Shown: positions 42,256 to 64,000, counted from the first letter of the stretch. The stretch is DNA of 64,000 nucleotides from an uncultured Phycisphaerales bacterium (GCA_963844715.1 CAWJPJ010000008.1:320001-384000); one strand, 5' to 3'. Notes: generated from the letters alone by a model not told the origin. A program made the numbers and translations.

Positions 42256-42266
42256 AAGGGCGACCG

Positions 42267-43472: not shown

Positions 43473-44967
43473 AAAACCAAATGGCCCCCTCCCGTCGTGC
43501 CGAAACCATCGGAAGGAGACAGAGAGCGCTCCCTCGGAGTACCGGCGGAGAGGGATGTCCAATGCAGTGCTCCTGCCGGCGTTTTGCATGTTAATTTTTG
43601 CTGGCGGGTGCGCGATCGATCAAAAGAAGGAAGTATCGATCTACCGCAAGGTGATCGATAACAACACGCCCGCCCCGGCGCGGGTGCAGCCCGGGCAGGT
43701 GGTGACGCTCACGGATGCGCTGGAGCTGGCCAATGAAAATTCCGAGAATCTCAGCGTTCAGGGTGAGAACTATCTGCAATCCCTGATCGACAAGGACAAG
43801 GCGTTCGCCGCGTTTCTCCCGACGCTTAATCTGGCCCCGACGGAGACGCTCACCAACGTCGGCACTCGCACCTGGACCGTCTCCCATGATTTGGAGGTGC
43901 CGATTGACGGGCAGATCAATTTGTTCAACGGGTTTCGAGACTATCACGCTTTGAAGGCGGCCGACGCGACGATTGAACAGCAAAAGCAACTGACTCTGGA
44001 TTTGCAGCAGACCATCCTCCTGGACGTGGCGCAGGCGTACTACCAGACTCTAACGGATGAACAGTCCGTGGAAGTGCTGAGCAATTCGGTTCAGGTTCAG
44101 CAGGCGAATCTGGAAAACATGGAAGCGCAGGCGAAGGTGGGGACGGCTTCCCCGCTGGTGGTGGCGCAGGCGCAATCGGAAGTCTCGCAGACGGTGGTCA
44201 CCCTGAATCAGGCGCGAGCGAGCGTGCGGAACGACCGGGCGATGCTGGCGTATCTGGTGGACGCTCCGATCGAGAGCAATCCCCTGCGCGACGACTTTGA
44301 GCCGCCGGCGGCGGTTCCCTCGTTGACGCAGTATATCTCGCAGGGCGAAGCCGGTCGGCAGGACCTGCTGGCCGCCAACGCGGCGGTGACGTCGGCGCGG
44401 GAAAACGTCGAGGTGCAGGTGGGGCAGTACTATCCCACGCTTACGGTTAATCTGGATTACATTCTTTACGACGAGGCTGTCGAGGGGCAGTCGTGGGAGG
44501 GGCTGATATCGGTGAATCTGCCGATTTATTCGGCTGGGTTGATCCACGCGGATATTCGGACCGCCTGGTCGCAATTCCGCCAGGCGGCGCTGACGCAATC
44601 GCAGCTGCGCCGGCAGATCGACCAGCTCGTCGAAACCGCCTTCACCAACTACGAACTGGCGATGCAGCAATTGGGCGAGTTGCAAGTCGAGGTGAAAGCC
44701 GCCCACGATGCGTATTACTACGCCGATGCGCAATACAAAGCGGGCACGCAGATTTATCTGAACGTCCTGACGGCGCAAAACACACTGCTCACGACGCAGT
44801 TGCAACTCACCGAGGCGCAGTTCAACACCAAGACCGCCTATTTCAATCTGCTGCGGACGATCGGGCGATTGAACATGGCGTCCGCGGTCTCGGCGACGCG
44901 CCCGTCGGAAGAGGAAATCCGCAACCTGGCGACGCAGCCGGCGACTCAGCCGATCTCCGGCAAATGA
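43465..44967 (+). CDS. TolC family outer membrane efflux lipoprotein
   Basis: Lipobox FAGGC, two OEP-like helical repeats; last gene of the pump operon. Confidence 0.8.
   Translation: MNKKPNGPLPSCRNHRKETESAPSEYRRRGMSNAVLLPAFCMLIFAGGCAIDQKKEVSIYRKVIDNNTPAPARVQPGQVVTLTDALELANENSENLSVQGENYLQSLIDKDKAFAAFLPTLNLAPTETLTNVGTRTWTVSHDLEVPIDGQINLFNGFRDYHALKAADATIEQQKQLTLDLQQTILLDVAQAYYQTLTDEQSVEVLSNSVQVQQANLENMEAQAKVGTASPLVVAQAQSEVSQTVVTLNQARASVRNDRAMLAYLVDAPIESNPLRDDFEPPAAVPSLTQYISQGEAGRQDLLAANAAVTSARENVEVQVGQYYPTLTVNLDYILYDEAVEGQSWEGLISVNLPIYSAGLIHADIRTAWSQFRQAALTQSQLRRQIDQLVETAFTNYELAMQQLGELQVEVKAAHDAYYYADAQYKAGTQIYLNVLTAQNTLLTTQLQLTEAQFNTKTAYFNLLRTIGRLNMASAVSATRPSEEEIRNLATQPATQPISGK
43484..43556. 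repeat. REP-like element inside the tolC 5' end (copy 2)
   Basis: Shares CCCCTC..TCGTGCCGAAAC..CGGAAG..GACAG..GAGTAC..GGAGAGGG with 11101-11176. Confidence 0.65.
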
Positions 44968-44974
44968 GAACTTC

Positions 44975-46003
44975 GTGAAAAAATTCCGCGCACTGCTTGT
45001 GGGGGCCGGGGAGATGGGAAGGCACTGGGCGCGGAACCTTCGCGATTGTCCGGAAGTAAAAACGGCCGGGTGGATGGACATCCGCCCCGGCGCGGCGGCG
45101 ACCGCAATCGAGGAACTCAAACTTACCAGCGTCGAGGCGTATGACGATCTGCCCAAAGCCCTGCGGGAATTGAAGCCGGATTTTTTGGTGGATGTGACGG
45201 TGCCTGCGGCGCATTGTCCGGTGACGCTTGCCGCCCTCGAGGCGGGCGTGCCCGTGCTGGGGGAAAAGCCGATGGCGGATTCGATGGAATCCGCGAGGAA
45301 GATGGTGCGGGCCAGCGAAAAGGCGGGGAAACTTTATATGGTCAGCCAAAGCCGGCGCTATGACGCCGGGGCGATCGCGTTTGGGGAACTAATTCGTGCG
45401 CACGTCGGGAAGCTGGGAATCCTCAACAGCGATTTCTATCTGGGGGCTCATTTCAACGGGTTTCGCGCCGAAATGAAAAGCGTGCTACTGATGGACATGG
45501 CCATTCACACATTCGACTCGGCGCGGCAAATCAGCGGGACCGATCCGGTCTCCGTCTACTGCGAGGAATACCTACCCGAATGGAGCTGGCACAAAGGTGC
45601 GGATACGGCCGTCGCTCTCTTCGAGATGACCGGGGGCTTGAGATACACCTACCGCGGAAGCTGGTGCGCGGAGGGCCTCACGACAAGCTGGGAAGCAGAT
45701 TGGCGGGCGTATGGCCCGGGCGGCGGGGCGACGTGGGACGGCAAATCGCCGCCGGTGGCGGGAATCGTCCGGGGCGAATCGGGCATGGTGCGGGAGGCGG
45801 AAACGATTATCGCGAAAATTCCGGAATTGAAATATGGCGGAATCGCCGGGTCTTTGCGGGAATTTCTGGAGGCGCTGCGCACAGGCGACAGACCGCAGGG
45901 GGAATGTCACGACAACATCAAAAGCCTGGCGATGGTCTTCGCGGCCGTTGAATCGGCGCGAGCGGGCGGACGCGCGGCGGTGTTATGTTCCGCGCGGCGC
46001 TGA
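44975..46003 (+). CDS. Gfo/Idh/MocA family oxidoreductase
   Basis: VGAGEMG, GEKP and DMAIHTFD motifs. Confidence 0.85.
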   Translation: MKKFRALLVGAGEMGRHWARNLRDCPEVKTAGWMDIRPGAAATAIEELKLTSVEAYDDLPKALRELKPDFLVDVTVPAAHCPVTLAALEAGVPVLGEKPMADSMESARKMVRASEKAGKLYMVSQSRRYDAGAIAFGELIRAHVGKLGILNSDFYLGAHFNGFRAEMKSVLLMDMAIHTFDSARQISGTDPVSVYCEEYLPEWSWHKGADTAVALFEMTGGLRYTYRGSWCAEGLTTSWEADWRAYGPGGGATWDGKSPPVAGIVRGESGMVREAETIIAKIPELKYGGIAGSLREFLEALRTGDRPQGECHDNIKSLAMVFAAVESARAGGRAAVLCSARR

Positions 46004-46374: not shown

Positions 46375-46402
46375 TTGACTTGTCTGGATTGGTTTGTACC
46401 AT
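46375..46402 (+). promoter_or_regulatory. Possible sigma70-type promoter for the exoprotein locus
   Basis: TTGACT-16 nt-TACCAT in an AT-rich intergenic stretch upstream of 46532. Confidence 0.3.
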
Positions 46403-46531
46403 ATTTACTTGTCATCAGTCGTAGAATATTAAGCAATTCAGGGGCGAGACGCCAAGAGTTGTTCGCACTTCTGAAGTTACTGCTATTCCCCAAGACATAA
46501 TGGTGCGATCGTTCCTTGGACGGAGGGAGCC

Positions 46532-49500
46532 ATGTCCATCGGTAGCGATCCGGGTTGTCGTCGGCGATCACGGCGTTCGAGTTTGCATCTTGCCAAAGCG
46601 ATTGTTGAGGCGCTCGAATCGCGTCTTCTTCTTTCCTACGTTGTCAATACCATCAGCGATCAGCTCGACGCGAGCACGTCTCCAACGGTATCTCTTCGTG
46701 ATGCGGTCAATCGAGCGAATGCGGCCGGAGGCAACCAAACAATTACATTTGATTCGAGCGTTTTCACGCCGGGGACGATGCACACGATTACTTTGGCCAC
46801 GGGGACTGGCTTCGGCTCGCTGGTGCTTGACGACACGACGCTCACCTTAGAAGGACCAGGGGCCGGAACACTGTCAATCAATTCCGGTGGAACTTTCCGA
46901 GATATCGCTGTCGATCGGAATTCGAAGGCGGTCATTGAAGGCCTAACTGTCACCGGCGGGGGCATCGTCAATGGGGGCACACTCCAGATCAACAATTCCA
47001 CAATTAGCGGAAACTCTGTTGCCGGGGTGAGCAACGGTGGCGGAATAAAAAATTACTACGGCAGTCTCACGATCTTCAACTCTTATATTCATGATAACGT
47101 TTGCGGGTCATATGGCGGTGGAATTTTCAATAGCCACGGGAGTCCACTCACCATTGCCTCGTGTACCATCACGGGCAACACGGCCGACCTTGGTGGCGGC
47201 GGCATTTACAGCAGCGGAACCCTGGATGTCTACGATAACACTGTAATTAGCGGCAATGACGGAATTGGAAGCGGCGGTGGCGTCTTTGTATACAACGGTA
47301 CCGCCGAAATTTCCCACACGACAGTAAGCGGAAATACAACGAATTCCGGTTCTGGCGCCGGAATCCGCAATCAATTTGGGGACCTGACTGTTACAGACTG
47401 CACCATTACCGGAAATAGCTGCGAAAGCGGCGGTGGAGGAATCGGTAACGACGGCGGAACTCTTCAAGCCTACGGATCGATAATCGAGAACAACGTCGCC
47501 CAGTTTGATGGAGGCGGCATCGAGAATCTCAGCTATTACGCCAGCAACATCAGCGATTGCACGATCACCGGAAACACCACCGGTTACAGCGGCGGCGGGA
47601 TATTCACAGCCGGAGGACCCTTGTATGTTTCCGGCACGGAAATTGAGCACAATGCCGCGCAATATGGCGGCGGCGGTATAGGCAACATTGGCACAGCGAC
47701 GTTGACGAATTCCACCGTCAGTTACAACTCCGCCGAGCACAGCGGGGGAGGGATCGGGAACGGCGGCTCACTGACCGTGTCAGGAACGGCCGTCGACGAC
47801 AACACATCCTCGTCGGGGGGAGGAATTAGCAGGCGCAGTCTCCGTTACTGCTCAATTCGATTGTCAGCGGGGGCTTCGGCCGAGCGAACTTGGGCCGGCA
47901 GGCGTTCGGGGCCGATGCAGGCGAAGCGTATCTGAATATCAGCGATTCCACGATCACCGGAAATTTCTCAACTGGTGGCGGCGGCGGGTTGTATCTCGAC
48001 GGGGATTCATACTCGGCCATCTCAGAGTCCACGATCAGCAATAACTCGGCCCATTGGTCCGGCGGCGGCATCGATAGTGCGAACTGGGCGTCGGAACTCA
48101 ATCTCTCAGACTGCACGATTAGCGGCAACATCAGCGAAAGCGGTAACGGCGGCGGCTTGTATACCTATGGCGGCACCACAACAATTTCGTATTCGCTGTT
48201 CGATGCGAACACGGTAGCCAGCAGGCTGCGCTATGGTGGCGGCGTCGCGAACTTCAACGGCGGCACGCTTACTATTACCAATTCCACGATCGCGCAAAAT
48301 CGGGCTTATGGCGGCGCAGGCATCGATAGCGATTGTGGGACCGCCACCGTTGAAGATTCCACAATTTGGGATAACACCACCTCGATGGAACAGTTCGCGG
48401 GCGGCATATATGACAATTCCAGCAACGGTTCGAACTGCGTTCTGGAAGGCGATATTGTCGGAGACAATCTTCTCGCCGGCAACAATGCCGAATGCGATCT
48501 ATCGGGCGGAGCGTTTACCGGCCAGGACAATCTGATCGGCGACGGATCCGGCGGGCTATCCGCGGCCGCAAATCTCACCGGAATACCGAATATGTCGCCA
48601 TTGGGTTACTACGGCGGTCCAACCGAAACGTATGTGCCCCTGCCGATGACCGGGGGTAATCCGGCCATGGGAAATGGATATCCCGACTCTGCCGCGACCT
48701 TCGATCAGCGGGGCTTCCCCCGATCGACTTCCCATCCTGATATCGGAGCCTTTCAGTCTCAACCCGAACCGATCGTCGTCACTACCCTCGAGGATGCCTG
48801 GCCTGTCGATCCGGGCAATATGTCCTTGCGCGACGCGATCAACCTTGCCAACGTTCTGAAAGGCAACCAGACCATTGCTTTTGCGCCGGAGCTAACTGGA
48901 ACAACGACGCTGACGCTCGGGCAATTCGAGCTGGATGACCCCACGGGCACGATTACGATCGATGGACCGGGCATAAATGATCTGACGGTCGACGCAAATG
49001 GCGCCCGCGCGTTCGTGGTTGACGCCGGTACCGGTGTCGTTCTCGACGACATGAAGATTACGGGTGGCGCAGGCGACGCGTGGCGGCGCGATCGAGAACC
49101 TTGGCACGCTTTCGATAAGTGATTGTGTGATTTCCGGCAGTACCGCATCCCACTCCGGCGGCGGTGTCTACAACTCCGGAACCTTAAGCCTCTATGGAGT
49201 AACCATCCAGTCGAATATCGCCGCTTACGGCGGAGGGATTTTCAACTCCGCAACATGCACGATCTCCAGCAGTTCCACTGTAACCGACAACTCGGCTTCC
49301 AAAACCGGCGGCGGAATCTACTCCAGCGGTGCCCTGACCGTTACCAGTTCCACGATTTCGGGAAACACGGGCCTGTTCAGCGGTGGCGGCATCTACAATT
49401 ACTACAACTATCACACCCATATGTCCGGCACAGGGGTCGTAAATATGTCCGGTAGCACGATCAAATACAATACCACAACGCAAGTTTACCGTGCAGGCGG

Positions 49501-52500
49501 ACTTGGCGACGGGTATGGTGGCGGGATCGAGAACTCCGCCGGGGCGGTCACGATTACCAGTTCCACGTTCTATGGCAATTTCGCGTATCAAGAAGGCGGG
49601 GCGATTTTTACCGGATCACAGGACTTCGGCCACATCATTTCGACGTATAACGGTTCGGTTACCATTTCCGGCACTGAAGTCGATCAGTCGAGTTTCACCG
49701 ACAACGTGGGTCGCGATGGGTTTGAGAACGGGGGCGGGGCGCAATATTCAGCAAGGAGAGCACCGTTACCGTTTCCTACTCGACCTTCACGGGCAACACC
49801 GCGCTCAACGTGAGCGGGGGATATGGCGGAGCCATTTACGCAGGTTCCAAGGGCTCGCTTTACGTCGGCTTTTCCACATTCCTAAATAATTTCGCTGAGC
49901 AGGGTTTGGAAAATGGCCAAGCGGTGTGTGCCGCGTGTACGACGACCATCACCAACTCCGTCGTCCAAGACAACGGGGGTGGGGACGGAGGGGGCCCAGC
50001 GATCAGCGCGGGACCGGACCTGACATTGGATAAGTGCACCATCGAAAATAACAACGGCGCGGGTGTATACGATGAAGTGAGCTTTGTCATCGAAAACTGC
50101 CTGATCCAGGGAAACACCGGCGGGGACGGAGGCGTGTTTGTCTCCGGGGAAGGGGAAATATCGAATTCAGTGATTACTCAAAACTCCTCGACGGATTCCG
50201 GAGGCGGTATTGATATTGATACGGGCGGCGAAGGTCCGACTCCGAACATCGTTATTGAGGACTCGACAATTTCGTATAACACCGCAGCGAACCATGGCGG
50301 AGGAATCGACGGGGGAGGGGATTTAGCGGTGGTGAATTCCACGATAACAGGAAATGTCGCACGCGAGGGGGGCGGAGTTTATGGCGCGGGCTATTGTGTG
50401 CTCACCGACTCGACGATCTCCGGCAACACCGTGACGGGCGGGACCGGAGGGGGCTTTAGTTTCAACGCGCACTACAATTATGTCACCCACACGACCAGTC
50501 CGCCGCCGACAATCAACGGGACGATCGTTTCCGGGAATACCGGCGGTGATTTTTATGGCACGCAATACACTGCCGGGGACGACATTTTCAACGGAACCAA
50601 TAACCTCATTGGCGGAAATGCGCTGCTGGCGGGGCTGGGCACCTATGGGACTTCAATCACCGCCGGATCGAGCGTCGGCGGGTCGACGCCTCAATACGTT
50701 GAAACGATGGCTTTGCTGCCGGGGTCGCCGGCGCTGGACGCGGGCGGCGTCTTTGACGATGAGAGCGGGAATCCGATTACGACCGATGTGCGTGGCGTGA
50801 GCCGCGATCCCGCTGAGGGATCATCCGACATCGGAGCGTTTCAGAGTCAAGGATTTAATGTCACCATTACCGAGGGAAACGGTCAAAGCGCGGCGGTGAA
50901 TACGCCGTTCTCAAGCGCCTTGGCCGTCCAGGTCACCTCCAACGATCCGAATTTCACGAACCTGACCGGTGGAATTGTGACGTTCAGTGCGCCCAGCAGC
51001 GGAGCCGGCGCCGTTCTGGGTACGAACCAGATCATCGATGCGGCCACGATCAATAATGCGAGCGGAGACGTTAGTGTCCCCGCGGAGGCCGACGATACAC
51101 CTGATGCGCCGGGAAATTACAACGTGACCGCCAGCGCGACGCCGATGGCGACGTCGTCTTACACGAACTTCACGTTAACCAATATGGGATCGCTGCCGGT
51201 AGGCCTACCCACGGTCTCAATATCAGGAGCCTCTTCGGTAAACGTTGGTGCGTCGTACACACTAACACTGAACACCAGCAGTACGAGTTCGCTGACCTGG
51301 ACGATCAATTGGGGCGATGGGAGCCCGGACACGGTTTACCCCTATCCTTACGGCGAAAATACGCCGACGCAGACGCACACCTATACCTTTACGTCGACGT
51401 CCAATTTCATCATTACGGCGACGGCGACGGACGGGACGAATATGTACGCGGCGGGCACGCAGGCAGTTCAAGTGACGCAGCCGCGGGCAGGTGGATGGCC
51501 GTCACAACCTCCGACACCGACGGGGCTTCAAATTATTCAGGCCATACCAGGAGAGATTGACATCTCGTGGATCGGAAGTAGTGACCCAAACGTTGTGGGG
51601 TACAACGTGTATGTATCCCCAGAGGCGAATTTCCCGCTCTCGCCGGGTAACCTGATCGCAAGCGACGTGACGACGGCTGGCTACACGGACAATTTCAATT
51701 CTGCTCCCGACGTAACTTGGTATTACGAGGTGACCGCGGTCACCAAGTCGGCACAAGAATCAGCCCCATCAGCGTGCGTTGGAGCAATGATGCCGACGAA
51801 CTTACCTGCGGATTACCAGGAGCCTGGGGTCGATGGGAGTGAGCCGGCCGACGCTGGCGACATCGGAGACAGTGAATCAACAGTCGGCCCAGATACAGGG
51901 ACCGAGAAGGATTTGCTGGCATTCTACGGGTTGAATTTTGGAAATGGCAATCCCGCGGTGACGCCCACCGTTGGTAATGCATACTTGGACGAGATAGTAG
52001 ATTACGGAAATTTTGGAATCAATGGCTATGGCCTTCGCGACTACGGTTACAATCTGGTCGGCAGCCGCATCTTTGCGGACTACGAGTGGCAGCAAGCCGA
52101 AATGGCCGTCATTTCAATACTCGATCCGACTGACACAAAAGTTATAACTCCAACTCAAATTGCGGCGCACCAGATTTACGTACTTGCGTACAGCTGGGGG
52201 GCGATTACTGCCGCGAATGTCACCGAGGATCTAGCTAAGCCGGATTCGGATTTGTTCGGTGTGCGCACTTCCGGACCCGTGCGCGGCCAATTCGTAGTCA
52301 ATAACGGATGGGACCTCGAAGCACCGGTGCAAATTCAAGTGTTTGACGCCATCGACCCGGTAACGTCGGCGTTTCTCGTCTCGGGTCTTATCCGCTTCAC
52401 GGGCCCGCTCGATTCCAACGTAATCAACTTCAATGATTATTACCAGCAATCGGGAATAACGTCGAATTTCGACGTAGAGGACCCATTCGGGACCTCGCTC

Positions 52501-52797
52501 GGTACGGGCCAAATCGGCAGATTTTTCCCCGATGATATGATCGGCGGTAATACACTCGCTTGCGCACAGTCGATCATTCAGGACCAAGAGAACGTAAACA
52601 CGAGCCCCGAATTTTCGACTCTGGACCTTTGCGCTCCATACGACCAATCGTCTACCCCGTTTTATGAATTTATAGATCTCCCTGGCGACGAGGTTAACCA
52701 TGATACGATTGTGGCATATTGTTATCAGCTGGTGTATTTCGACTTTGGGGTTGCCCTTCCCAGTCCCGGGACATTCCCACAGCAATTCCCGCTGTAG
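46532..52797 (+). CDS. Giant exoprotein, putative polymorphic toxin: planctomycete signal, 2x CSLREA-like/beta-helix/choice-of-anchor-Q, Ig, PKD, FN3, C-terminal alpha/beta hydrolase (frameshifts near 47850, 49075, 49745)
   Basis: GGAGG RBS; EALESRLLLS; SLRDA twice; GGGI...N repeats; D.RG..R...DIGAFQ twice; WTINWGDG; tip with AYSWG (52186-52200), IDPV and NHDTI. Confidence 0.8.
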
Positions 52798-53233
52798 AGC
52801 GGTAGCGATTGCGACTTTGTTAGTAGGGTTATGCACGGGTTGCACGGGATACCCGACCCGCGAAGGCACATGGCGAGGGTATGTATTTGTACAGGAATTT
52901 GGAGATAACCAGACTAAATTGCGATTATATAAAATGCGAATAGAGGAAGGACCTCGTGAGCCATCTATGGAACCTGAGGCCCTGGCGGACGAAGATAAAA
53001 AACGGAATCCGGCCTGGTATTCGCCGGTTCTAAGCAACGAGGACTTTGTTGCGTTGGATCTCGGTGACATTCCTCCCGATGAATTAATTACAGTTAGCGG
53101 AGAATACTGCTCTGGCGCGGGGGAATATGTTTACGGAACGCTTCTCGGACGCGAGGTTGGGATCCATGTGATTCGCGTTCATAAGATGTGGGACCGCCAC
53201 GACGAGCGCCTTCCACTTCATCCTATGAATTAG
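52700..53233 (+). CDS. Putative immunity lipoprotein for tip 1 (start uncertain)
   Basis: Overlaps/abuts the exoprotein stop; AVAIATLLVGLCTGC lipobox-like signal; lower GC. Confidence 0.55.
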   Translation: MIRLWHIVISWCISTLGLPFPVPGHSHSNSRCRAVAIATLLVGLCTGCTGYPTREGTWRGYVFVQEFGDNQTKLRLYKMRIEEGPREPSMEPEALADEDKKRNPAWYSPVLSNEDFVALDLGDIPPDELITVSGEYCSGAGEYVYGTLLGREVGIHVIRVHKMWDRHDERLPLHPMN

Positions 53234-53856
53234 TTTGGTGGAAAATGGGAAAACGAAACCAGGACGCAGCTAGATAGCAATTTATAGCTACTGATGCGAC
53301 TGACAACACCGCCCGCAATATGGGGCGCGGTACTGGCGGCTAGCGCGGTGATTCCTGCCCCGATCCGAATGGCAGCGATGGATATGGCGGGGCAGTGTAT
53401 GCCGCAACGCTTGCCAACAAAGGTTCGCTTACCATTACGGGCTCCGTCTTCACCAACAATTTAAGCAACGCGGGGGGCGAGGCAATCGGCGACACATGTA
53501 CCTCTTGTACGATTACCGGATGCACGATCAGCGGGAATACGGAAAGCGGCATCTGGGCCACGGGTGCATTAAACCTGTACAGCTGCACCATCGAGGACAA
53601 CTACGGCGGCAACGGTGGCGGCGTCGATGAGCTCGGTGGGTACCTATTAATGAAAAATTGTCTGGTCGAAGGAAACACGGGGACCGGCGGTGGCCTCTCC
53701 ATTTCAAGCAGTCTCATCGAGAATTCGATCATCGCCGACTGTCAGCGGGCGCACAAAACCGGCCACTGAGGGGCGCGCCAAAACCGGCCATTTTGAAGCA
53801 CAGGAGATTCGATCATTACCGTTGGTTCCCGGTTCTAACCGGGAGACGACGGCACG

Positions 53857-55390
53857 ATGGCGAATCAGCTCAAAATGGCGGAAGTTCAAGCAATTCTTTC
53901 ACTTGCACGCAATGGTTGGTCCAACCGGCACATCGCCCGCCAGCTTGGCGTTCACCGCGAGACGGTTGGACGCCATCTCCGGCTGGCGGCGCGGGAAGAT
54001 TCAAAACCGGCCAGCGCACCCCTCGGCTCGGAGGGCGCGCCCACCGGGTTGGTCAGCGCCGCCAGCGCCTGGCGTGAAGTGATCGTTCAGAAGCTGGGCA
54101 TGGGGCTGACCGCCCAGCGGATTTACCAGGACCTCTGCTCCGATCACGGTTATGCCGGCAGCTATTACAGTGTTCGCCGGCTGGTTGGGAAGTTGACCTC
54201 GGCGGCGCCAACGCCATTCCGGCGGATGGAGTGCGAGCCGGGCGCCGAGGCCCAGGTCGATTTTGGACGGGGCGCCGCCCATCGTCGGTTCCGACGGCAA
54301 GAGGAGAAGCACCTGGGTCTTCCGCATCGTGCTGAGCCACAGCCGCAAGGGGTACGCCGAGGCGGTGCACCGTCAGACCACCGATGACTTTCTGCGTTGC
54401 CTGGAGAATGCGTTCGCGCACTTCGGCGGATTGCCGCGGACGCTGGTGATCGACAATCTTCGGGCGGCGGTGAAGCGGGCGGACTGGTTCGACCCGGAGT
54501 TGTGTCCCAAGGTCCGCTCGTTTGCCGAGCATTACGGAATCGCCATTCTGCCGACCAAGCCCTACACGCCCCGGCACAAGGGGAAGATCGAACGGGGCAT
54601 CGGCTATGTGAAGGGCAACGCCCTCAAGGGACGGACCTTCAGTTCTCTGGCCGATCAGAACCAGCATCTTCAGGCCTGGGAAGCGACCGTCGCCGATACG
54701 CGCATCCATGGAACGACGCGCCGGCAGGTGAAGGAAGTGTTCCAGCAGGCGGAGCAGCCGGCGCTCTTGCCGTTGCCGGCGGCGAGATTCGATCTGTTTG
54801 CCGAAGCGTTGCGCAGCGTCAGCCGGGACGGACACGTGCAGGTCAAAGGCGCGTATTACTCGGTCCCACCGGAGTTTTTGGGCCGGCAGCTTTGGGCGCG
54901 CTGGGATGGGCGCCTGATCCGCTTGCTGGATCAGAAGATGCGCCCCGTCGCGGTGCACGTGCAGCGTCCGCCGGGGACCTTCTCCACGCTGGATGCCCAT
55001 ATCCTGCCGGAGAAGATCAGCGGGATCGAAAAAGGAACGGCCTGGCTCCTGCGCCGGGTCGAATCCATCGGACCGCACGCCACGCAGTGGGCGCGGTCCA
55101 TGCTCCAGAATCGCGGCATCGAGGGCGTGCGCGTGCTCCTGGGCCTTATGTCCCTGACGAACAAGCATTCCCGCCGCGTCATCGAGCAGGCCTGCCAAGT
55201 CGCCCAGGGGCATGGGGCGTATCACCTCCGTTCATTGCGCCAACTCCTCGAACAACAGAATCCGCCCGCCCTTCAGCGGAACTTCGAGTTCGTCCAAGAA
55301 CATCCGATCATCCGCGACCTGGGCGACTACGGCCGATTCGTGCGACAGGCCATTACCCAACAACCACCTTCACAGGAGTCCATTCCATGA
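53857..55390 (+). CDS. istA: IS21 transposase (frameshift near 54270)
   Basis: N-terminal HTH, EAQVDFG, IDNLR and KGKIE DDE motifs. Confidence 0.9.
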
Positions 55391-56268
55391 GACCTTCATT
55401 GTTACAGACGCTCAAACAGCTTCGGCTTTCGGGCCTGGCCCAGAGCCTTGAAGTCCGATTGAGCGAGGCGGCTGGCAATCGGCTCGATCACGCCGAGTTT
55501 TTGGAACTGATTCTCCAGGACGAACTGAACGTGCGGTCCAGCCGATTGGTGAGCCGCCGCGTCAAGGCCGCCCTGTTCGGCGAAGTCAAAAACCTCGACG
55601 AGTTCGACTTCTCCTTCAATCCCTCCATCAAACGCAAGCAGATCCACGACCTGGCCGGCTGTCAGTTCATCCGCGAAAAAGCCGACGTGCTTCTATTGGG
55701 CCCACCCGGCGTCGGCAAAACGTTCCTGGTCCAGGCCATCGGGCATCAGGCGATCAAAGCCGGACACCTGGTTCTGTACCGCTCCATCTTCGATCTGGCC
55801 CGCGACTTCCTCGGCGACGACGAACTCGGCCAGCAGGACAAAACGCTGAATCGTTATCTCAAACCCGACCTGCTCATCATCGACGACATGGGAATGCGAC
55901 AACTTCCGCGTCGCTCCGGCGAATGCCTGCTGGAGATCATCATGCGCCGCCATGAGAACCGCTCGACGATGATGACCAGCAACCGGCCGCTGGAAGACTG
56001 GGCCAAGCTGATCGGCGACGTCCCGGCGGCCACGGCGATCCTCGACCGCTTCCTTCAGCACGCCACCCTCCTCAACATCACCGGCAAAAGTTATCGTTTG
56101 CGCCACGGCGGCGCCGGGGAGGCCGTGGAGGCGAAGCCTTCCACAAAGGCAAATTCAAAAGGACGGCGGAGTACCGCCGACGATGGAGGGTGCTCCCCTC
56201 CGGAAGACACCGTGGCAGAAAGCACGGTCTCTTCTTGTGCTGGGGCGCCCGCCGATCAGGCGTCCTGA
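55387..56268 (+). CDS. istB: IS21 helper ATPase
   Basis: GPPGVGKT, LLIIDDMG, TSN, AILDR and GKSYR. Confidence 0.9.
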   Translation: MRPSLLQTLKQLRLSGLAQSLEVRLSEAAGNRLDHAEFLELILQDELNVRSSRLVSRRVKAALFGEVKNLDEFDFSFNPSIKRKQIHDLAGCQFIREKADVLLLGPPGVGKTFLVQAIGHQAIKAGHLVLYRSIFDLARDFLGDDELGQQDKTLNRYLKPDLLIIDDMGMRQLPRRSGECLLEIIMRRHENRSTMMTSNRPLEDWAKLIGDVPAATAILDRFLQHATLLNITGKSYRLRHGGAGEAVEAKPSTKANSKGRRSTADDGGCSPPEDTVAESTVSSCAGAPADQAS

Positions 56269-59147
56269 TGCGCGGCTGATAACTCAACAGAAAGTTGCAT
56301 GGAACTGAACGGATGAGGTATACGAAGCGTCACAATACTGGCCGCTTTTGAGCGCCCATTGATGGCCGGTTTTGGCGCGCCCCGCGACAGCCGACAACAC
56401 TTCCGAGACCGAGGCGGGCGGCATCCAGGCGCAGGACAACTGCACCATCGAGGGCTCGACCCTCTACGGAAATTCGGCCGTAGATGGCGGGGGCGGAATC
56501 GATTTTGGGGGCGGCACGTTGTCCGTCATCAACTGCACTATCACCGGCAATTCGGCCCTCACGGGCGGCGGAATTTGGGCAGGCGGTACGGACCTTGCGA
56601 TTACCGACTCGACGATCTCCGGCAATACCTCGACCACGCAGGGAGGTGGGTTTAGTTTCGATTCCGATGACGTGTACGGACACGAGATGGACTACGTGCC
56701 GCCGCCGACGATCAACGGGACGATCGTTTCCGGGAACAGGGGTGGCGACTTTTATGGCACCCTTTACACGGCGGGCGATGATGTCTTCACCGGCGCGAAT
56801 AACCTCATCGGCGGGAATGCGCTGCTGGCAGGCATGGGCGCCTATGGGACTTTAATCAAAGCGGGTTCGAGCGTCGGCGGATCAACGCCTCAATACGTTG
56901 AAACGATGGCGTTACTGCCGGGGTCGCCGGCGCTGGACTCCGGCGTCGGCGAGGACGATCAGAGTGGGAATCCGATTACCGTCGACGAGCGCGGCATCAG
57001 CCGCGATCCCGCTGAGGGATCATTCGACATCGGAGCGTTTCAGAGCCTTGGGTTCAACGTCACCATCACCGCGGGGAACAATCAAAGCGCGGCCGTCAAT
57101 ACGCCATTCTCCACCGCTCTGGGGGTCCACGTTACGGCCAACGATTCCGGACTGACCGATCTGAGCGGCGGTATCGTGACCTTCATTGCTCCTTCGACGA
57201 GCGCAACGGCGGTTCTGGGGACCGATCAACTCATCTCCGATCCGGTGACGCTCACCAGCGGCGGGACTGCTACCAGCGACACCCCCACGGCCGACGATGT
57301 GACCGGAACCTACAACGTGATGGCGTCGGCTACGCCTTATGCGACTTCATCGTTCACGAATTTTTCGCTGACGAACGGCGGCAGTCCGGCTTCGGGATTG
57401 CCGACGCTTTCTATCACTGGGCCGACGACGGCAACGGGTGGGCTTTCCTACACGCTGACTCTTAACACCAGCGATGCCACGCAAAACATTCCGCTGACGT
57501 GGACGATCCAATGGGGGGACGGGCAGGTGAGCACCGTCACGCAGAATAATGACGCTCTCACATCGGTGACGCTTACAGACGGATTTGCGACGGCGCCGGG
57601 GAATTTTACAATCTTTGCCACGGCGACAGATTCAAGCGGGAATATTTATGTGGCGGGGACTTGGCAGGTGAACGAGGACGAGGAGGGGCCGGTCCCCCCG
57701 GGGCCCGTCCCTCCCGGGCCGGTGCAGGCACAGGCGATGTCTAGCGATCTCGTTGATCTGAGTTGGAACCCTGTGGCCGGCGCCCAGTACTACGAGGTAT
57801 TTCGCGGAACGACGGCGAATTTTGCGCCGACATACAGCACGTCGATCGCTGACGACCTAGGGTCAAACTCATATCAGGATGAGGAGGTCTCCGCCGGTGA
57901 TACTTACTACTATGTAGTCGCCGTCTATAGCGGAGGAGACGCGCTTGCGGTTGTTGGTAGGAGCGCCGTTTCGATACCAGACGAAGTCGATACGACGGAG
58001 CAACTCCTTGCGCCAGCAAGCGTTGAAGCCGTCGGTGTAAACGACTTAGAGATCTTCGTCTCTTGGGCGGACGTGCAAACAGAGATGAGTGGATTTGAAA
58101 TATTTATCGGGACCAGCGCGTCTCAGGGTTATCTTGCCGGCGAGGTTGGCCCGGCACAGCACAATTTTATCATACGAGGTTGCGGTCAAAATGCAGCCCA
58201 GTTCTTGCAAGAGGACGTAACTTACTATATCGATGTTGCCGCCATTCTGACGAATTCCCAAGGCTACATAACAGGCTCGGGTTATGCCAGTAGCACCGTG
58301 GAGGCTTCCGTTAGGCCGCCCAGTCCCTTTATCGCGGGCGGTGATGATGTGATCGTTATAAGCGGCGGCGCTCGCCAGCCAATGAGTTATCTCCTCAATG
58401 GAATCACCGTGGACACCTCCAATTCCGGCCGGGTCCTTACTGGGCAATCCAATCAAAACAGTGTCGGCGAGATTTGGGCCGATCTTGTCAATCTGGGATA
58501 CAACGTTTACATTTCATCCGATCCGTGGGACGGCGGTGACACAACTTGGACTGAAACGGACTACGAGACTCTTCAATCCGGTGCGACCATTGGACCAGTT
58601 TTAAATTCCGATGGATCAGGACGCCTATATGACGAAATACAGTATGAGCTCCACCAGGGCTTTATGAACGTGGGCTTGATCGGCTATAGCCATGGGGGCG
58701 GAATGATCGCGAAGATATCGACCGACCTCTGGTATGATCCTAACACTCCTCAATGGGCAAGGGTGGTTTTTGCGGGCACGATCGATGCGGTATGGTATGG
58801 AACGGGATTCATGGGCGGACTTGGTAGTAGTTTGAACCCGAACGAGGGAATGGACCCCCTCGCCTGGTCGCCTGCATTAAGTGACGGTTTTAACCCGATT
58901 TGGGGTGGCATAGCATTCAACTATTATGAGACGGCGGGATCCCTGGGAGTCTCCGGTTATTTTGGGCTCATATGTGGTACGACTATGCCGGGGGCATTCA
59001 ACTTGCAGGTCGCCGGAAACCATTCCACTATCGGAGTCGATCAAGCCGTATTGGGCGCAATCGAAACTGATACAAATTTTGTCTTCGGTCAGCTATCGTA
59101 TTAATTAGTTGGGCAATTTATCGCTAAACCAGCAGTTCGATGCGTAA

Positions 59148-59543
59148 ATGTCAAGGCAGAACCATCAATCATCGGGAGGGCGCGCCTCCGATGATGCGGG
59201 CAAACTTGATTATGCTAGCGGCGGGCGCGCAAACCGAGCGTTCGCGTGGGACTTAGTGTCCTTAATTGCGGGGCTGGCGCAAGTTCCTTGGGTATTGATT
59301 TGTATGCTTACCTCTTGGAGTCTCGGGTTGGACCGCTTACCGGGTAACTGGGGGGCTAGAGTTCTACTTGTGAGCATGGGCATCCCGACGGTCGTCGGGA
59401 TATTCTGCGGGCATCGCTCGATGAAAACATGGAGGCGGTCGGGACCGAACTTGCTGGGTGTAGGAGGACTTGTTCTTTCCGTTCTGGGCGCTTTATGGCT
59501 GCTATATGTGGTTGCCAGGGCTTTGATAGCGGGTGCGATATGA
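59148..59543 (+). CDS. Putative membrane immunity protein for tip 2
   Basis: Three TM helices; LDYA, QVPW, PTV and NLLG motifs shared with 63146..63529. Confidence 0.6.
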   Translation: MSRQNHQSSGGRASDDAGKLDYASGGRANRAFAWDLVSLIAGLAQVPWVLICMLTSWSLGLDRLPGNWGARVLLVSMGIPTVVGIFCGHRSMKTWRRSGPNLLGVGGLVLSVLGALWLLYVVARALIAGAI

Positions 59544-59706
59544 TGGGAGGGGGAAATCTAGGGACAGGCACGAACGCCATTCGATTAAGCATAACGCTCG
59601 CGGTGCTTTGCCTTTAGGTTCTGTCTTGGTTCTTTGAGCAGGTCGTATTCCTTGATTCGCCGTTTCAGTTTTCGCGGCTCCCAACGGTCCGGACGATCGG
59701 GATTGA

Positions 59707-62205
59707 CCATCCGACTCGACGATCTCCGGCAACACCGCGACGGGCGGGACCGGAGGGGGCTTTAGTTTCAACGCGGGCTACAATTATGTCACCCTCACGG
59801 GCAGTCCGCCGCCGACGATCAACGGGACGATCGTTTCCGGGAATACCGGCGGTGATTTTTATGGCACGCAATACACTGCCGGCGACGATGTCTTCAACGG
59901 AACCAATAACCTCATCGGCGGAAATGCGCTGCTGGCGGGGCTTGGAGCTTACGGGACGACGGTAATGGCGGGAGCCACGCTGGGGGTGGCGACTCCAGTG
60001 ACCGTGGACACGATGGCGCTGCTGCCGGGGTCGCCGGCGCTGGACGCCGGAGCCAATACCTTCGACGATCAGAAGGGCAACCCAGTTCTCAGTGACCAGC
60101 GCGGGATCAGCCGCGATCCCGCTGAGGGATCATCCGACATTGGAGCGTTCCAGAGCCAAGGGTTCAACGTCACGATTACCGCGGGGAACAATCAAAGTAC
60201 GACCGTCAATTCGCCATTCTCCACGGCTCTGGGGGTCCACGTTACGGCCAACGATTCCGGACTGACCAATCTGAGCGGCGGAATCGTGACGTTCATTGCT
60301 CCCTCGACGGGCGCGACCGCCGTGCTGGGGACCAATCAACTCATCTCTGATCCGGTTACCCTTAGCAGCGGGGGGACCGCCACCAGCGACACCTTCACGG
60401 CCGACGATGTGACTGGAACCTACAATGTGATGGCGTCGGCTACGCCTTATGCGACTTCATCGTTCGCGAATTTTGCGCTGACGAACGGCGGGACTCCCAC
60501 AGCGGGACTCCCGACGCTCTCCATCACCGGCGCGACGACGGCGACGGGCGGCCTTTCCTACACGCTGACTCTTAACACCAGCGATGCCACGCAAAACATT
60601 CCGCTGACCTGGACGATCCAATGGGGGGACGCGCAGGTCAGCACGGCCACGCAGAATAATGACGCTCTCACAACGGTAACGCTGACCGACGGATTCGCGA
60701 CGGCCCCGGAGAATTTTACGATCTTTGCCACGGCCACGGACGGGAACGGGAATATTTACGTTGCTGGCACTTGGCAGGTGAACGAGGACGACGAGGAAGT
60801 GCGTCTCCCTCCTGGGCCGGTGCAGGCAGAGGCGATGTCCACGGATTTGGTCGATCTAACTTGGAACGCCGTGGCAGGAGCGCAGTACTACGAAGTTTTC
60901 CGCGGTAACAGCCCTAACTTTACACCATCATACAATAATGACGTATCTAACGCCGTCATCGCGCCCTCTTTTGCGGATAGCAACCTTTCGGCGGGTACGA
61001 CTTATGATTACAAGGTATACGCAATTGACGCTTCAGGAGCTGCGGGCCTTGTCGGCGCGAGTTCTGCGGCGACGCCTTTATTCGATGCCCCAATTGATCC
61101 CGGCTCGGGCGCAGACTCAACCCCGTCCGGAGCACCCGTCGACATTCAGGCGATGGGAGTTAATGACTTGGAGATATTCGTTTCGTGGACCTGCACAGCT
61201 CGAAATATAGATGGCTTCCAAATACAAATTTCGACCGACCAGGTCAATTGGGGAGACGCCGGCGACGTGCCTGCATTCTACACCGACCTAACAGCTTCGT
61301 CTGCGTCGTACATCCAAAACTACGTTGTCCGGACCGGACCAAACGGCAGTGACCTTCTACAGGAAGGCCAGAAATACTACATTCGCGTAAGATCATATAA
61401 TAGCGGGTATCAGAGTGCCTGGGATTATTCTTCTGGACCAGCTGAAGTCGTCACCCCGAGTGTGGACGTCGGCGCGGGCATGGATACCGTCTTAGTTTTT
61501 GGCGGCAACGACGAGCCAATGACCAGACTTCTACAGGGGGTCAGCGTCGGGTTGGGCGGGGTTCTGCAGGGCGCGAACCCGGCATTGGACGGGGTTGGGG
61601 CCGTCTGGGTTCACGACGTAAACGAGGGCTATAATGCATTTCTCACGGCAGATCCGCACGATGGCGGAGCGCCTAGCGGCTATGGCGGCATGCCACCACC
61701 AGGCGCCGTGCCAGCTTATGAAGACATAATCAATAATAACGGCACCGGCCTACTCTACACTGAACTGCAAACCGAACTTAACCGAGGCTATTACGATCTG
61801 GGGTTGATCGGATACAGTCACGGAGTGGGGATCATGGGGAATATGATGTTGACCTTGGTTAACGATCCGGCGACGCCGTTTTTTACGACCGGCGTTTTCG
61901 TGGGCACAATCGATGGGGTTGAATACGGCGCAGGACCGGATTCGAGCGGGACCTGGCTAACGCCGAGGGACGGGTGGTATATAGGCCCCGATGCACCAGT
62001 TGTCGTATCTCCCGCCGCGCTTTGGCCAACAACGTGCACCGGTGTGAATTATTGGGAGCCCAATTGGTATGATGGTATTGTAGGAGGCTCCAACATGTTG
62101 AGTGCAACGAATTACGAGATCGACTTCCTCACCCACAGCAACATCGATAATTCGAGCGGTGTCCTGAGTGGCATTGAGAATGCCATGGATAGCGCTTTTA
62201 ACTAG
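59707..62205 (+). pseudogene. Orphan cassette 3 (no native start or signal): anchor-Q, Ig, PKD-like, FN3s, hydrolase tip 3
   Basis: Frame opens after TGA at 59704 directly into DNA near-identical to ~50405-50640; GYSHG at 61810-61824, IDGV and THSNI. Confidence 0.78.
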
Positions 62206-63089
62206 GGCCTGTCTGATGAATCCAAAATCCTGAAATAGCGACGGATCATGGCGAGCTTGGCCATGGCCTGAAAGTTCACCGCCAGTTTCTCGTAACGCGT
62301 GCCCAGGCGGCGATTCTCCTTCATCCAATTCACGCAACGCTCCACCACGTTCCGTCGGCGATACGCCTTGCGATCAAAGTTCTCCTGCGGCGGCTGATTC
62401 GATTTCGCCGGGATCACCGCTTGGATTCGGTGGCGACGCAGCCATCGCCGCACATTTCCGTAACTGTATCCCTTGTCGCCCGCCAGCCTCCTGGGGCGAC
62501 GACGGCGGCGACCGATGCGCATCGCGTTCATCACCGGCTCCACGTACCGGCTCTCGTGGCATTGGCCGGCGCTGGCCTCGACGGCGAGCGGAACTCCCTG
62601 GCCGTCAGTAACCAGGTGGAGCTTGCTGCCCCACCCGCCTCGGCTGCGGCCCAACGCGTGATCCGCCGGTTCTTCCGGGGCGGTTTTGATTTTCTGGCTC
62701 CGGCGGCGGATCGACTGGCTCGCACATTGGTGCCGTCGATGCACCACAGGTCCCAGTCGATTCGTCCTTGCTTGTCCAACCTCATCTGCAGCCGCTGGAG
62801 GATTCGATCAATCGTTCCGTCCTTTCTCCAGCGGTTGAAGCGGTCGTAGACGCTTTGCCATCTGCCGTAACGTTCGGGCATCTCGCGCCATTCAGCGCCC
62901 GAGTGCAGAATCCAGAACATGCCGTTGAGCGTGGTGCGGTGGTCGTTCCACTGCCCGCCGCGCTTGCCGTTGCCGGGCAGCAGATCGCCGATCAACTCGT
63001 ACTGCTCATCCGTGAGCTCATAACGTCGCATCCGTGACACCTCGTCTGAAAACCGCTATTTATAACCAAAAGCGATTCATCAGACAGGC
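62206..63089 (-). mobile_element. IS5 family insertion sequence (IS427-like, two-ORF transposase)
   Basis: Perfect 17-bp TIR GGCCTGTCTGATGAATC flanked by CTAG on both sides; ORF A (YELTDEQ, WREMPERYG, IDGT) and ORF B (KLH, GDKGY, RNVVER). Confidence 0.92.
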
Positions 63090-63145
63090 CCTAGTGGGTG
63101 CCATACTTTTTTCACAGTAGTGTGATATGTATGGTGGCGGGCGTT

Positions 63146-63529
63146 ATGAGTGGCGAACCGAAAAATAAAACCGACCCCGAAGCAACGCCCCTGGAGTACG
63201 TCACCCCTGGTACCGAAACCGAAGGCGCCCGGCCATACGAGACCGTGGGGATCATAGCGGGAATCTTGTCCGCCGCGGCAATGGTTATTCAGCTTCCGTG
63301 GGGGTATCTCGCTTTCATGTCTGCGTGGGACCGCGCCAAAGAATTGCCATCTAGCCAGGCGATGGCGGTCCAGTGGATCATGATAATGCTTCCGACGGTC
63401 ATTGCGCTGCCATTGGGAGTCGCATCTATAACACTGGGCGGACTCTCCGAGCGAAACGCTCTTGGGCTGATGGGGCTGATTTTTGCCGCGTTGGCCGCGG
63501 GAGCGGTCCTATGGCATTTTTTCCTCTAA
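63146..63529 (+). CDS. Putative membrane immunity protein for tip 3
   Basis: Three TM helices; LEY, QLPW, PTV and NALG motifs; paralog of 59148..59543. Confidence 0.6.
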   Translation: MSGEPKNKTDPEATPLEYVTPGTETEGARPYETVGIIAGILSAAAMVIQLPWGYLAFMSAWDRAKELPSSQAMAVQWIMIMLPTVIALPLGVASITLGGLSERNALGLMGLIFAALAAGAVLWHFFL

Positions 63530-63669
63530 GAACGAATTAAAGAACGAATTTGAGGAATCTAGGGACCGCCACCACCTACTTATTGTTGCCTTTGGAATTG
63601 GCGATGGGGATGATTGGGGCATGCCGCGTGTGCCTCGGATTGTGCTTCCTGATAAGGGCATGGAAATGC

Positions 63670-64000
63670 ATGAAAGCCCGAAGGCCCCTTGATTACGCCG
63701 GGCCGAGTGGTGCGAAGCCGAAAGCTGCGGCGACCCACGGTGGAGACGGCCGCACGCCGATCCTCCCCTATCTTCCAATGATTTTCGCAATTTTGCAGCT
63801 GCCATGCACCATGTTTTTCGGCGGTGTGTTGTTTCTCCTGTGTAACTATATCGGCCCGATCCAGTTTCTTGACTCGCTTACGCCAAGAGGCGTCGTGTGG
63901 GTTTCACTTTTGCCGTCGGGCGGCGGGGGTTTTACTCGGTGCTTTTGTGATGTTTTGTCTTAGGCCGATCAATCTCGTAGACCGGATCTTTGCGATGCTT
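63670..64000 (+). CDS. Additional immunity-like membrane paralog (stop at 63963, or frameshifted and running off the window)
   Basis: LDYA, QLPC and LLPS motifs matching the other two membrane genes. Confidence 0.45.

Follow-up and report, generated by a model that had tools for sequence, protein, structure and literature searches.

A candidate polymorphic toxin-immunity array with hydrolase tips on a beta-helix exoprotein in a soil planctomycete

We analysed a stretch of 64,000 nucleotides (the window) from an uncultured Phycisphaerales bacterium (GCA_963844715.1 CAWJPJ010000008.1:320001-384000), a soil planctomycete placed in the Tepidisphaeraceae (Phycisphaerae, Planctomycetota). From position 46532 onward, the window holds the gene for a giant exoprotein that ends in a hydrolase domain (the tip), then a small gene, and then truncated copies of the exoprotein gene that are followed by small genes of their own. 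An earlier reading of this DNA, made from the sequence alone (the sequence-only reading), had proposed that this is a toxin-immunity array. On the sequence comparisons described here, we think it somewhat probable that the array is indeed a polymorphic toxin-immunity array, with a new family of hydrolase tips, two new families of partner proteins, and a non-canonical scaffold. The comparative layout, the linkage of tips to downstream genes, and the recurrence of the design at another locus support the proposal, but the toxin folds of the tips are not diverse.

All of the exoprotein genes and their small genes lie on the plus strand. The full-length gene (c1, 46532..52797) encodes 2,088 amino acids once three 1-nucleotide assembly indels are accounted for, and a small gene (s1, 52700..53233) is present after it, both as the sequence-only reading had described. 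Downstream are three 5'-truncated copies of c1, which we call orphans: c2 and c3 within the window and c4 just past its end. The sequence-only reading had recognised two of these, each with its own small membrane gene (c2 with s2, and c3 with s3a and s3b), but there is a third, c4 with s4, beyond the window. It also missed an insertion sequence (IS) of the IS21 family in c2, an IS5-family element at the stop codon of c3, and the fact that tips 2 to 4 belong to one family. The orphans lack the N-terminal region of c1, and each retains a stretch that is homologous to the stalk of c1. When the window is compared with itself, 56604-57807 (in c2) and 59711-60905 (in c3) are 81% identical, and 50405-51036 of c1 is 78-80% identical to both at the nucleotide level (blastn). 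We view this shared segment of the c1 stalk (+ strand) as a candidate substrate for recombination.

The full gene, the small gene, the headless orphan modules, and the homologous segment match published polymorphic toxin loci as set out by Jamet and Nassif (2015; PMC4436062), who define the homologous region as well as orphan modules. It is because of this match that we consider a toxin/immunity array to be the best reading. Like the polymorphic toxin systems Rhs, CdiA (of contact-dependent inhibition, or CDI) and MafB, the array has a large protein of several domains, the C-terminal one of which varies; directly downstream of it, a small gene that is specific to the type of C-terminal domain; orphan modules that have lost the N-terminal trafficking region and carry their own small gene, with a second example at a metagenomic locus (L041); a homologous segment common to the full gene and the orphans; one type of tip on different N-terminal regions; and cassettes of lower guanine plus cytosine (GC) content on a strain-specific island.

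In the assembly, c1 is split into four open reading frames in different phases (46532-47935, 47890-49122, 49064-49813, and 49810-52797), and reading it in three frames places the breaks near 47830-47890, 49080, and 49735. To check the assembly, we compared the contigs of four public short-read runs, all from one study, with positions 46400-64000. These contigs differ from the window by 1-nucleotide indels at 47832 (+C), 49071 (-1), 49735 (+G), 54275 (a deletion), and 63922 (a deletion). With the first three applied, c1 becomes a single open frame of 2,088 codons, so c1 is intact and its frame breaks are assembly errors; polishing of this kind is what the sequence-only reading had asked for. 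The deletion at 54275 restores the frame of istA in the IS21-family element, and the deletion at 63922 extends s3b beyond the end of the window. The assembly of the window therefore carries scattered single-base indel errors.

From its N terminus, the c1 protein consists of a short motif, a beta-helix, two choice-of-anchor-Q domains, PKD- and FN3-like spacers, and the hydrolase tip. We scanned the copies in the window with Pfam and NCBIfam at E <= 0.01, and this threshold applies to the domain searches below as well. Beta_helix (PF13229) matched three times (E 2.4e-14, 1.6e-10, and 8.1e-11, the last of these in the 5' part of c2), and Chlam_PMP repeats matched in the c1 stalk. Choice-of-anchor Q (NF041518) matched twice in c1 (E 3.9e-11 and 4.6e-10) and also in c2 and c3, with E from 3.9e-11 to 7.4e-10 overall. 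Of the domains that had been listed from the sequence alone, the beta-helix, choice-of-anchor Q, and FN3 were thus recovered; CSLREA (20.3 bits, cut-off 25), PKD (E 0.0047), and the N-terminal signal (scored as LEPR-XLL) fell under their cut-offs; and no Ig family matched any of the window's copies.

The N-terminal motif, IVEALESRLLLS (46601..46636, + strand), resembles LEPR-XLL and is presumed to be an export or sorting signal. A motif of this type occurs near the start of eight open frames in the genome, c1 included, and several of these are very long. Three other giant genes for beta-helix exoproteins have this N-terminal motif as ALESRxLLS: contig C3, 1398-6815 (minus strand), and contig C7, 1-7242 (minus strand) and 925389-940000 (plus strand). 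The last of these reads in many separate frames, and more assembly indels may be the cause. Near-identical sequence is shared by the ends of contigs C3 and C7, which suggests an unresolved repeat.

As the sequence-only reading had claimed, the exoproteins end in hydrolase tips. None of the tips has a Pfam or NCBIfam match, and DUF2235 is not found either, but the order Ser-Asp-His is kept in all four of them: the Ser is in GYSHG or AYSWG, the Asp in TIDAV or AIDPV, and the His in NHS or NHD, with a nucleophile elbow of G/A-x-S-x-G. In tip 1 (51850..52794), the putative triad is Ser115 (in AYSWG, nucleotide 52192), Asp169 (52354), and His284 (in NHDTI, 52699). In tip 2 (58334-59101), it is Ser119 (58688), Asp151 (58784), and His230 (59021), and in tip 3 (61390-62202), the corresponding codons are at 61816, 61912, and 62134; all three tips are on the plus strand. 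Across two alignments of the tip-2 family (33 and 14 sequences), D151 never varies, and S119, G121, and H230 vary little or not at all. Tips 2 to 4 form one family with 34-44% identity, and tip 1 is distant from them. So the tips do differ, as had been said, with 16-44% identity among all four, but they all belong to one alpha/beta-hydrolase superfamily.

The fold was assessed from an AlphaFold (AF2) model of tip 2, which has a predicted local distance difference test score (pLDDT) of 84.4 and a predicted TM-score (pTM) of 0.86. Foldseek gave 31 matches in the PDB at E <= 0.001. These are headed by LipA of Bacillus subtilis (3d2b_A, E 1.3e-5, TMq 0.45, TMt 0.61), with a lipase from Streptomyces also at the top. 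VIA-align, run against 48,161 chains, returned alpha/beta hydrolases with none standing out, at Z 11-14, including thioesterases and esterases; examples are lpg2422 (Z 14.0, root-mean-square deviation 3.1, 189 residues aligned), TleB (Z 12.2), and Tle1 (Z 11.1). Judging from the model and these matches, tip 2 has an alpha/beta-hydrolase fold with a clear catalytic apparatus and a putative hydrolase activity. Like B. subtilis LipA, the "minimal alpha/beta hydrolase," tip 2 has a small core without a lid and a G/A-x-S-x-G elbow; unlike LipA-type lipases, to which it is only 14-18% identical, it has extra insertions and is the C-terminal domain of a giant protein.

Tip 1 is harder to place. The profile of tips 2 to 4 does not reach it in its own genome, and its structural model is poor (pLDDT 59.9). 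With that low-confidence model, Foldseek found nothing at E <= 0.001, and the weak matches were acetyl-xylan esterases and cutinase-like enzymes. A profile-profile comparison (hhalign) does connect tip 1 to the family of tips 2 to 4, with a probability of 85.5% and E 5.7e-6 over 105 columns that take in the nucleophile elbow and the Asp strand. Also, S115, D169, and H284 are invariant in eight sequences of the tip-1 family, seven of which are from other genomes. These models and profiles weakly suggest that tip 1 is an alpha/beta-hydrolase as well. Sequence searches of the PDB with tips 1 and 2 returned nothing significant; the best match was FimH (E 0.048), which we take to be due to chance. 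In the ESM Atlas, look-ups returned no clusters other than those labelled "alpha/beta hydrolase" or "hypothetical."

The small genes are of two kinds. s1 is a 177-codon open reading frame for a small putative lipoprotein, the candidate partner of tip 1, with a lipobox-like LLVGLCTGC followed by EGTWRG. Its listed ATG overlaps the end of c1, and the true start is probably later. s2 (59148..59543, + strand), the candidate partner of tip 2, encodes a protein of 131 amino acids with three predicted transmembrane (TM) helices and its N terminus inside. s3a (63146..63529, +), also with three TM helices, belongs to the same family (25.6% identity to s2, E 6e-9 in a database of five sequences), as do s3b (63550..64000, +), another small membrane protein, which has PLDY and QLP motifs and whose frame passes the end of the window once the indel is corrected, and s4, which lies downstream of c4. 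Members of this family have a PLDY-like N-terminal tail, Q-x-P-W in the first TM helix, and an R-N-x-L-G loop before the last helix. In an alignment of eight members (A6), L-(D/E/N)-Y is found in the tails of seven, and RNxLG is found in most. A crude hydropathy scan of seven members, with s3b left out, predicted three TM helices in six of them, and the distribution of charges indicates that the N terminus is inside. The three-TM partners are 113-171 amino acids long with external loops of 10-30 residues. None of the small partner proteins matches Pfam or NCBIfam, and a profile of the membrane family retrieved just six members from 5.8 billion proteins, none of them with a Pfam domain.

The small genes go with the tips. 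All seven of the genes with tips of the tip 2-4 family for which downstream sequence is available (c2, c3, c4, two at L041, one at L042, and one at L044) have a gene of this one small membrane protein family directly 3' of them. The tip-1 family is present in eight of 401 genomes of the class, and a lipobox-bearing open reading frame lies downstream on the same strand in all eight; in six of the eight, G-x-W-x-G follows shortly after the Cys. So the type of partner tracks the family of tip: putative inner-membrane proteins with tips 2 to 4 and lipobox proteins with tip 1. The sequence-only reading would have fallen if tips and downstream genes were unlinked, and instead, in one genome after another, a given family of tips is accompanied by one and the same kind of downstream gene.

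The comparative test proposed by the sequence-only reading was whether the tips and downstream genes vary while the stalks are conserved, and they do. The stalks of c2 to c4 are 82-87% identical at the protein level, with a synonymous divergence (dS) of 0.29-0.58 and a ratio of nonsynonymous to synonymous divergence (dN/dS) of 0.22-0.28. At about residue 480 of c2, immediately ahead of a pair of FN3-like domains, identity falls to 30-45%, or about 35% for the cassette as a whole, and saturation sets in at synonymous sites. GC content changes as well, from 0.60-0.62 in the stalk to 0.51-0.55 in the cassette, as compared to 0.594 for the genome. In a neighbor-joining tree of 21 tip domains (built with Biopython), the tips of this genome formed one clade in none of the 300 bootstraps: the closest grouping of tip 4 is with L041's second tip (100%), and that of tip 3 is with the metagenomic proteins P0004-P0007 (85%). 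From these comparisons, the tips appear to be older than the stalks that carry them. Homology across genomes begins about 30 residues before the identity break, at the first FN3 domain, so the portable unit is FN3-FN3-hydrolase. The inclusion of two FN3 domains in the variable unit sets the array apart from Rhs, CdiA/CDI, and MafB. Exchange of cassettes is mechanically plausible, as c1 shares exact runs of up to 87 nucleotides with c4 and 65 nucleotides with c3; the longest run shared with c2 is 26 nucleotides.

Relatives of the tips are rare. When tip 2 was searched exhaustively with HMMER against 1.84 billion representative proteins, only 36 matched at E <= 0.001. In all 15 of the proteins that were longer than 400 amino acids, the match lay towards the C-terminal end, and in 10 of these it ended within 25 residues of the end. 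In the sample of 401 genomes, the profile of tips 2 to 4 matched at near-full length only here (in three places) and in a genome of the same genus (G205, on the contig that holds L042); the match in G171 is partial, and 21 further genomes match part of the profile. The motif patterns of tips 2 to 4 occurred in one record among 185,579 species genomes. A scan of metagenomes with a narrower alignment (A5) gave 14 loci, four of them strong. With tip 2 as a single query, we found no related loci in genome contigs, and a word-based search for close relatives of tip 1 in proteins of 547-1,742 amino acids returned only the window's own protein.

Where the tip 2-4 family occurs elsewhere, it is on other stalks, with PKD, Calx-beta, PA14/He_PIG, SdrD_B, or fn3 domains, and none of these has a beta-helix. 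One of these loci, L041, repeats the design of the array: a gene of 1,570 amino acids, a small TM gene, a 5'-truncated copy of 765 amino acids, and a second small TM gene. The truncated copy begins in the middle of a domain, and its first 620 bp are 78% identical to an internal part of the stalk of the first gene at L041. Right after the second tip/partner pair, at 9665-12230 of L041, there is a regular repeat in translation (FNPRPRVRGD / FQSTPPREGR) that resembles a CRISPR array.

A genomic island of some 21 kb holds the array. In this genome (G000, which is 85% complete), a gene for a GFO oxidoreductase and carB are 23.7 kb apart, and in the two genomes of the same genus that we compared, the distance between them is one or two genes. 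The array is missing from between these conserved flanks in both genomes. The genes 3' of c4 and its small gene, carB among them, are unrelated to the array.

The orphan c2 is in two parts. Its 5' part (53300..53739, +) starts inside the beta-helix, aligns as DNA to 49715-49900 of c1, and lacks the N-terminal motif; it contains an in-frame TAG at 53341, and its first start codon is a GTG at 53395. The IS21-family element follows (53740..56389, +; istA and istB, with matches to rve, Mu-transpos_C_2, and IstB_IS21). It has inverted repeats at its termini, and 6 bp of its target, GCCGAC, are duplicated on either side of it (53734-53739 and 56390-56395). The 3' part of c2 (56390..59104, +) holds the stalk with the shared segment, two FN3-like domains, and tip 2. 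If the element is excised in silico, then ...IENSIIAD joins NTSETEAGG..., parallel to c1. The element is upstream of the segment that c2 shares with c1, so the cassette of c2 would remain usable. c3 (59707..62205, +) is an open frame from ..SDSTISGNT, in which the ATG at 59965 is the earliest start codon of any kind; it lacks the N-terminal region and has an fn3 match (PF00041, E 3.2e-8). c4 (window-equivalent 64256-66784, past the window end) starts at the same residue as c3. Directly upstream of c3 is a junction element of about 160 bp (59555..59712), a 92%-identical copy of which lies upstream of c4 (window-equivalent 64106-64261). The junction element marks a 5' boundary that c3 and c4 have in common. 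No third copy is present anywhere in the genome.

The junction element would encode, on its reverse strand, a conserved and charged peptide (..NPDRPDRWEPRKLKRRIK..) that ends in a stop and that may be a remnant of another gene; the peptide has no paralogue in the genome. At the stop codon of c3, between c3 and s3a, sits the IS5-family element (62206..63090, minus strand), which encodes a transposase with DUF4096 and DDE_Tnp_1 and is flanked by CTAG. It is about 885 bp long and has 28 full-length copies in the genome that are at least 99.4% identical. The IS21-family element is found at five places. Together, these indicate a recent expansion of insertion sequences in this genome.

Several observations weigh against a toxin-immunity array. 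First, c1 and the orphans are just 78-80% identical over about 630 nucleotides. Second, the divergence of the tips is not significantly correlated with that of their partners: a Mantel test with seven pairs gave r = 0.47, which was reached by 329 of the 5,040 permutations. Third, the c1 N terminus has no classical hydrophobic signal core, and its motif scores just below the curated cut-off of LEPR-XLL (NF012209; 16.0 bits, E 0.0067, cut-off 17). Fourth, since the IS21-family element is inside c2, the 5' part of c2 is under no strong selection now. Fifth, the fold neighbours of tip 2 are ordinary lipases, esterases, and thioesterases, and the Tle-type phospholipases of type VI secretion systems (T6SS) are no more than tied among them (Z 11.1-12.3, as compared to 14.0 for the top match). 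Sixth, all four tips are from two related subfamilies of one hydrolase superfamily, and their diversity is in sequence and not in fold; polymorphic toxin systems put a diversity of unrelated toxin folds on one N-terminal region. Seventh, the best-kept motifs of the membrane partners (the PLDY tail and the RNxLG loop) are predicted to be cytoplasmic, which is unlike a simple capture of a toxin in the periplasm. Finally, FN3-linked esterases are also common in secreted enzymes that degrade polymers.

The main rival is that these are surface or secreted esterases or lipases with a role in nutrition, that the small protein has an accessory role other than immunity (it could be an anchor, a sensor, or a regulator, for example), and that tandem duplication left the truncated copies behind, to decay with the help of insertion sequences. 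The nearest structures to tip 2 are what this would predict, as are the weak matches of tip 1 to acetyl-xylan esterases and cutinase-like enzymes. Planctomycete exoproteins typically have stalks with PKD, FN3, Calx-beta, PA14, or beta-helix domains; the array contains IS21 and IS5 elements; and the conserved motifs of the partners look cytoplasmic. Yet decay should bring stop codons, and the orphans have none across 832-910 codons. Being free of stops at the dS and dN/dS given above, they argue for continued selection on the coding sequence. Nor do we see why leftovers of duplication would have a common 5' boundary (as c3 and c4 do), why the layout of a full gene plus orphan would appear again at an unrelated locus such as L041, or why the type of partner would change with the tip family. 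The cassette is also lower in GC and polyphyletic within one genome, the island is absent from genomes of the same genus, and, with 36 clusters in a set of 1.84 billion representatives, the family of the tip is far rarer than one would expect of a nutritional enzyme. We judge a nutritional role to be unlikely, if still worth taking seriously.

Another alternative is that the tip is a lipase and that the downstream gene is a dedicated helper, either a Lif-like steric foldase or a holin-like release factor. Operons of a lipase and its foldase are a known arrangement; here, the partner gene is tightly downstream of the tip, on the same strand and 44-50 nucleotides after its stop codon, and the membrane partners are small and multi-TM, as holins are. 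On the other hand, Lif proteins have a single N-terminal anchor, a periplasmic helical domain of about 300 amino acids, and a match to the lipase-chaperone family in Pfam; the partners in the array are three-TM proteins with short loops or small lipoproteins, and the lipase-chaperone family is among those that they do not match. External loops of 10-30 residues are too short to wrap a lipase of 250 amino acids. The partner of tip 1 is a lipoprotein of a different family, and the headless orphans and the mosaic of stalk and cassette would be left unexplained. A helper therefore seems improbable to us. Slightly harder still to credit is antigenic or functional variation of a surface adhesin or enzyme from silent pilS-type donor cassettes (to evade phage or predators, for example) with no role in killing: silent 5'-truncated copies that share a homologous segment with the full gene, a long surface-type stalk, and strongly diversified cassettes would suit it, but every cassette comes with a conserved small gene, the family of which follows that of the tip, and pure antigenic variation does not need this; and the triad is kept in every cassette, so the enzyme activity itself is under selection.

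If the locus is a toxin-immunity array, then the tip would be a lipase or esterase that harms the envelope of competitors from the periplasmic side, and the adjacent small protein would neutralise the cognate tip in the producer and its kin. Recombination between 50405-51036 in c1 and the matching segment of an orphan would swap the cassette and so change the type of toxin and immunity. Export might be via Sec plus a further route across the outer membrane, involving neither a CdiB-type partner nor a T6SS. No copy matches RHS/YD, FHA/Fil_haemagg, VENN, LXG, MafB-N, PAAR, or VgrG; the sequence-only reading was right about the stalk in this respect. No gene of the TpsB/CdiB type adjoins the array, and the sole match to ShlB in the genome covers 46 positions, on contig C5. 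A search of the 85%-complete genome for TssC/VipB found none, and there are five matches to secretin. So the array lacks what defines CdiA/CdiB (a TPS domain, FHA repeats, a VENN/pretoxin motif, and an adjacent CdiB), and it also lacks the RHS/YD repeats of the Rhs/YD toxins, whose core ends in PxxxxDPxGL.

The sequence-only reading had gone further and suggested that the delivery class is undescribed. In a survey of polymorphic toxins by Zhang and colleagues, one export mode is labelled "T2SS," which reportedly means export by a Sec signal peptide. For many polymorphic toxin domains, that survey (Zhang et al. 2012, PMC3482391) already gives "T2SS" as one mode of export, along with repeats of various types, so an undescribed class is not borne out; the locus may instead be a new scaffold within the T2SS-labelled class. 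The survey also reports alpha/beta-hydrolase toxin domains in classical polymorphic toxins (PMC3482391).

The tips also resemble the T6SS lipases Tle1-5 and the domains Tox-ABhydrolase-1/2/3, in that they have the Ser-Asp-His of alpha/beta-hydrolases, are predicted here to act as envelope toxins, and have an envelope protein as a partner. Tli immunity proteins, which protect against Tle effectors, are periplasmic or are lipoproteins. Unlike the Tle effectors, the tips have no match to a sequence family and are structurally no closer to Tle proteins than to generic esterases, they are fused to a giant Sec-type exoprotein and not delivered by a T6SS, and most of their partners have three TM helices. 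The stalk of c1, with Beta_helix, Chlam_PMP, and choice-of-anchor-Q matches and a shared N-terminal motif, is like those of the chlamydial Pmp-like and planctomycete beta-helix exoproteins; those are annotated as adhesin-like, and c1 differs in having an enzymatic tip and a small gene. Going by listings of the literature on planctomycete beta-helix and giant genes, we found no report of swappable enzymatic tips with cognate small genes on such exoproteins. Similarly, we found no description of the FN3-FN3-hydrolase plus partner module in the literature on polymorphic toxins, planctomycetes, or LEPR-XLL, most of which we saw as listings, and this is not proof that it is unpublished.

A bolder proposal is that the Planctomycetota have an undescribed class of interbacterial effectors, in which a mobile cassette of FN3-FN3-lipase and membrane immunity protein recombines into unrelated Sec-exported stalks, with the FN3 pair as a module for target recognition or entry and with no need for secretion systems of type V (T5SS), VI, or VII (T7SS). 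At the present locus, the stalk is a Pmp-like beta-helix with a LEPR-XLL-like N terminus, and the FN3 pair always accompanies the tip. We regard this proposal as possible, but would not expect it to hold in full.

Most of what is known about toxin systems that act between bacteria comes from Proteobacteria, Bacteroidota, and Firmicutes. Planctomycetes, to our knowledge, are without most of the classical machines for delivery, and little is known of what their many giant exoproteins do. If the array is for toxins and immunity, then one function of these giant exoproteins would have been found. There would also be a new family of lipase-like effectors and two new families of immunity proteins, all without a Pfam or NCBIfam model; the logic of a full gene plus orphan cassettes would be seen to work on a scaffold that is unrelated to Rhs, CdiA, or MafB; and attention would be drawn to the FN3-FN3-tip unit as a module that is portable.

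Upstream of c1 is a tripartite efflux operon (39620-44967), with a TetR regulator, an HlyD-family adaptor, a MacB-type ABC transporter (an ATPase plus a MacB_PCD/FtsX permease), and an OEP/TolC-like protein. Between this operon and c1 is the gene for the GFO/IDH/MocA oxidoreductase (44975-46003). We considered the operon as the exporter of the array and set it aside: it is linked to a TetR regulator, the oxidoreductase gene separates it from c1, and it is also kept in the genomes of the same genus that do not have the array, where the OEP and GFO genes are neighbours and conserved.

The contigs of the four short-read runs contained neither a joint between c1 and an orphan nor an empty site for the IS21 or IS5 element; contigs drop rare variants, so this is uninformative about recombination. 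A backward joint from 64000 to 59599 in X3 was rejected as a rearrangement, being the junction element of c4 mapped onto the copy at c3. Promoter-like sites (12, with 10.0 +/- 3.1 expected by chance) and terminator-like sites (24, with 17.4 +/- 4.1 expected) are not in excess. Elsewhere in the window, 18581-20888 contains internal direct repeats with 65-71% identity at offsets that are multiples of about 306 bp. These repeats are within long open reading frames on the minus strand (18236-19951 and 19908-22826), which points to a repeat-domain protein.

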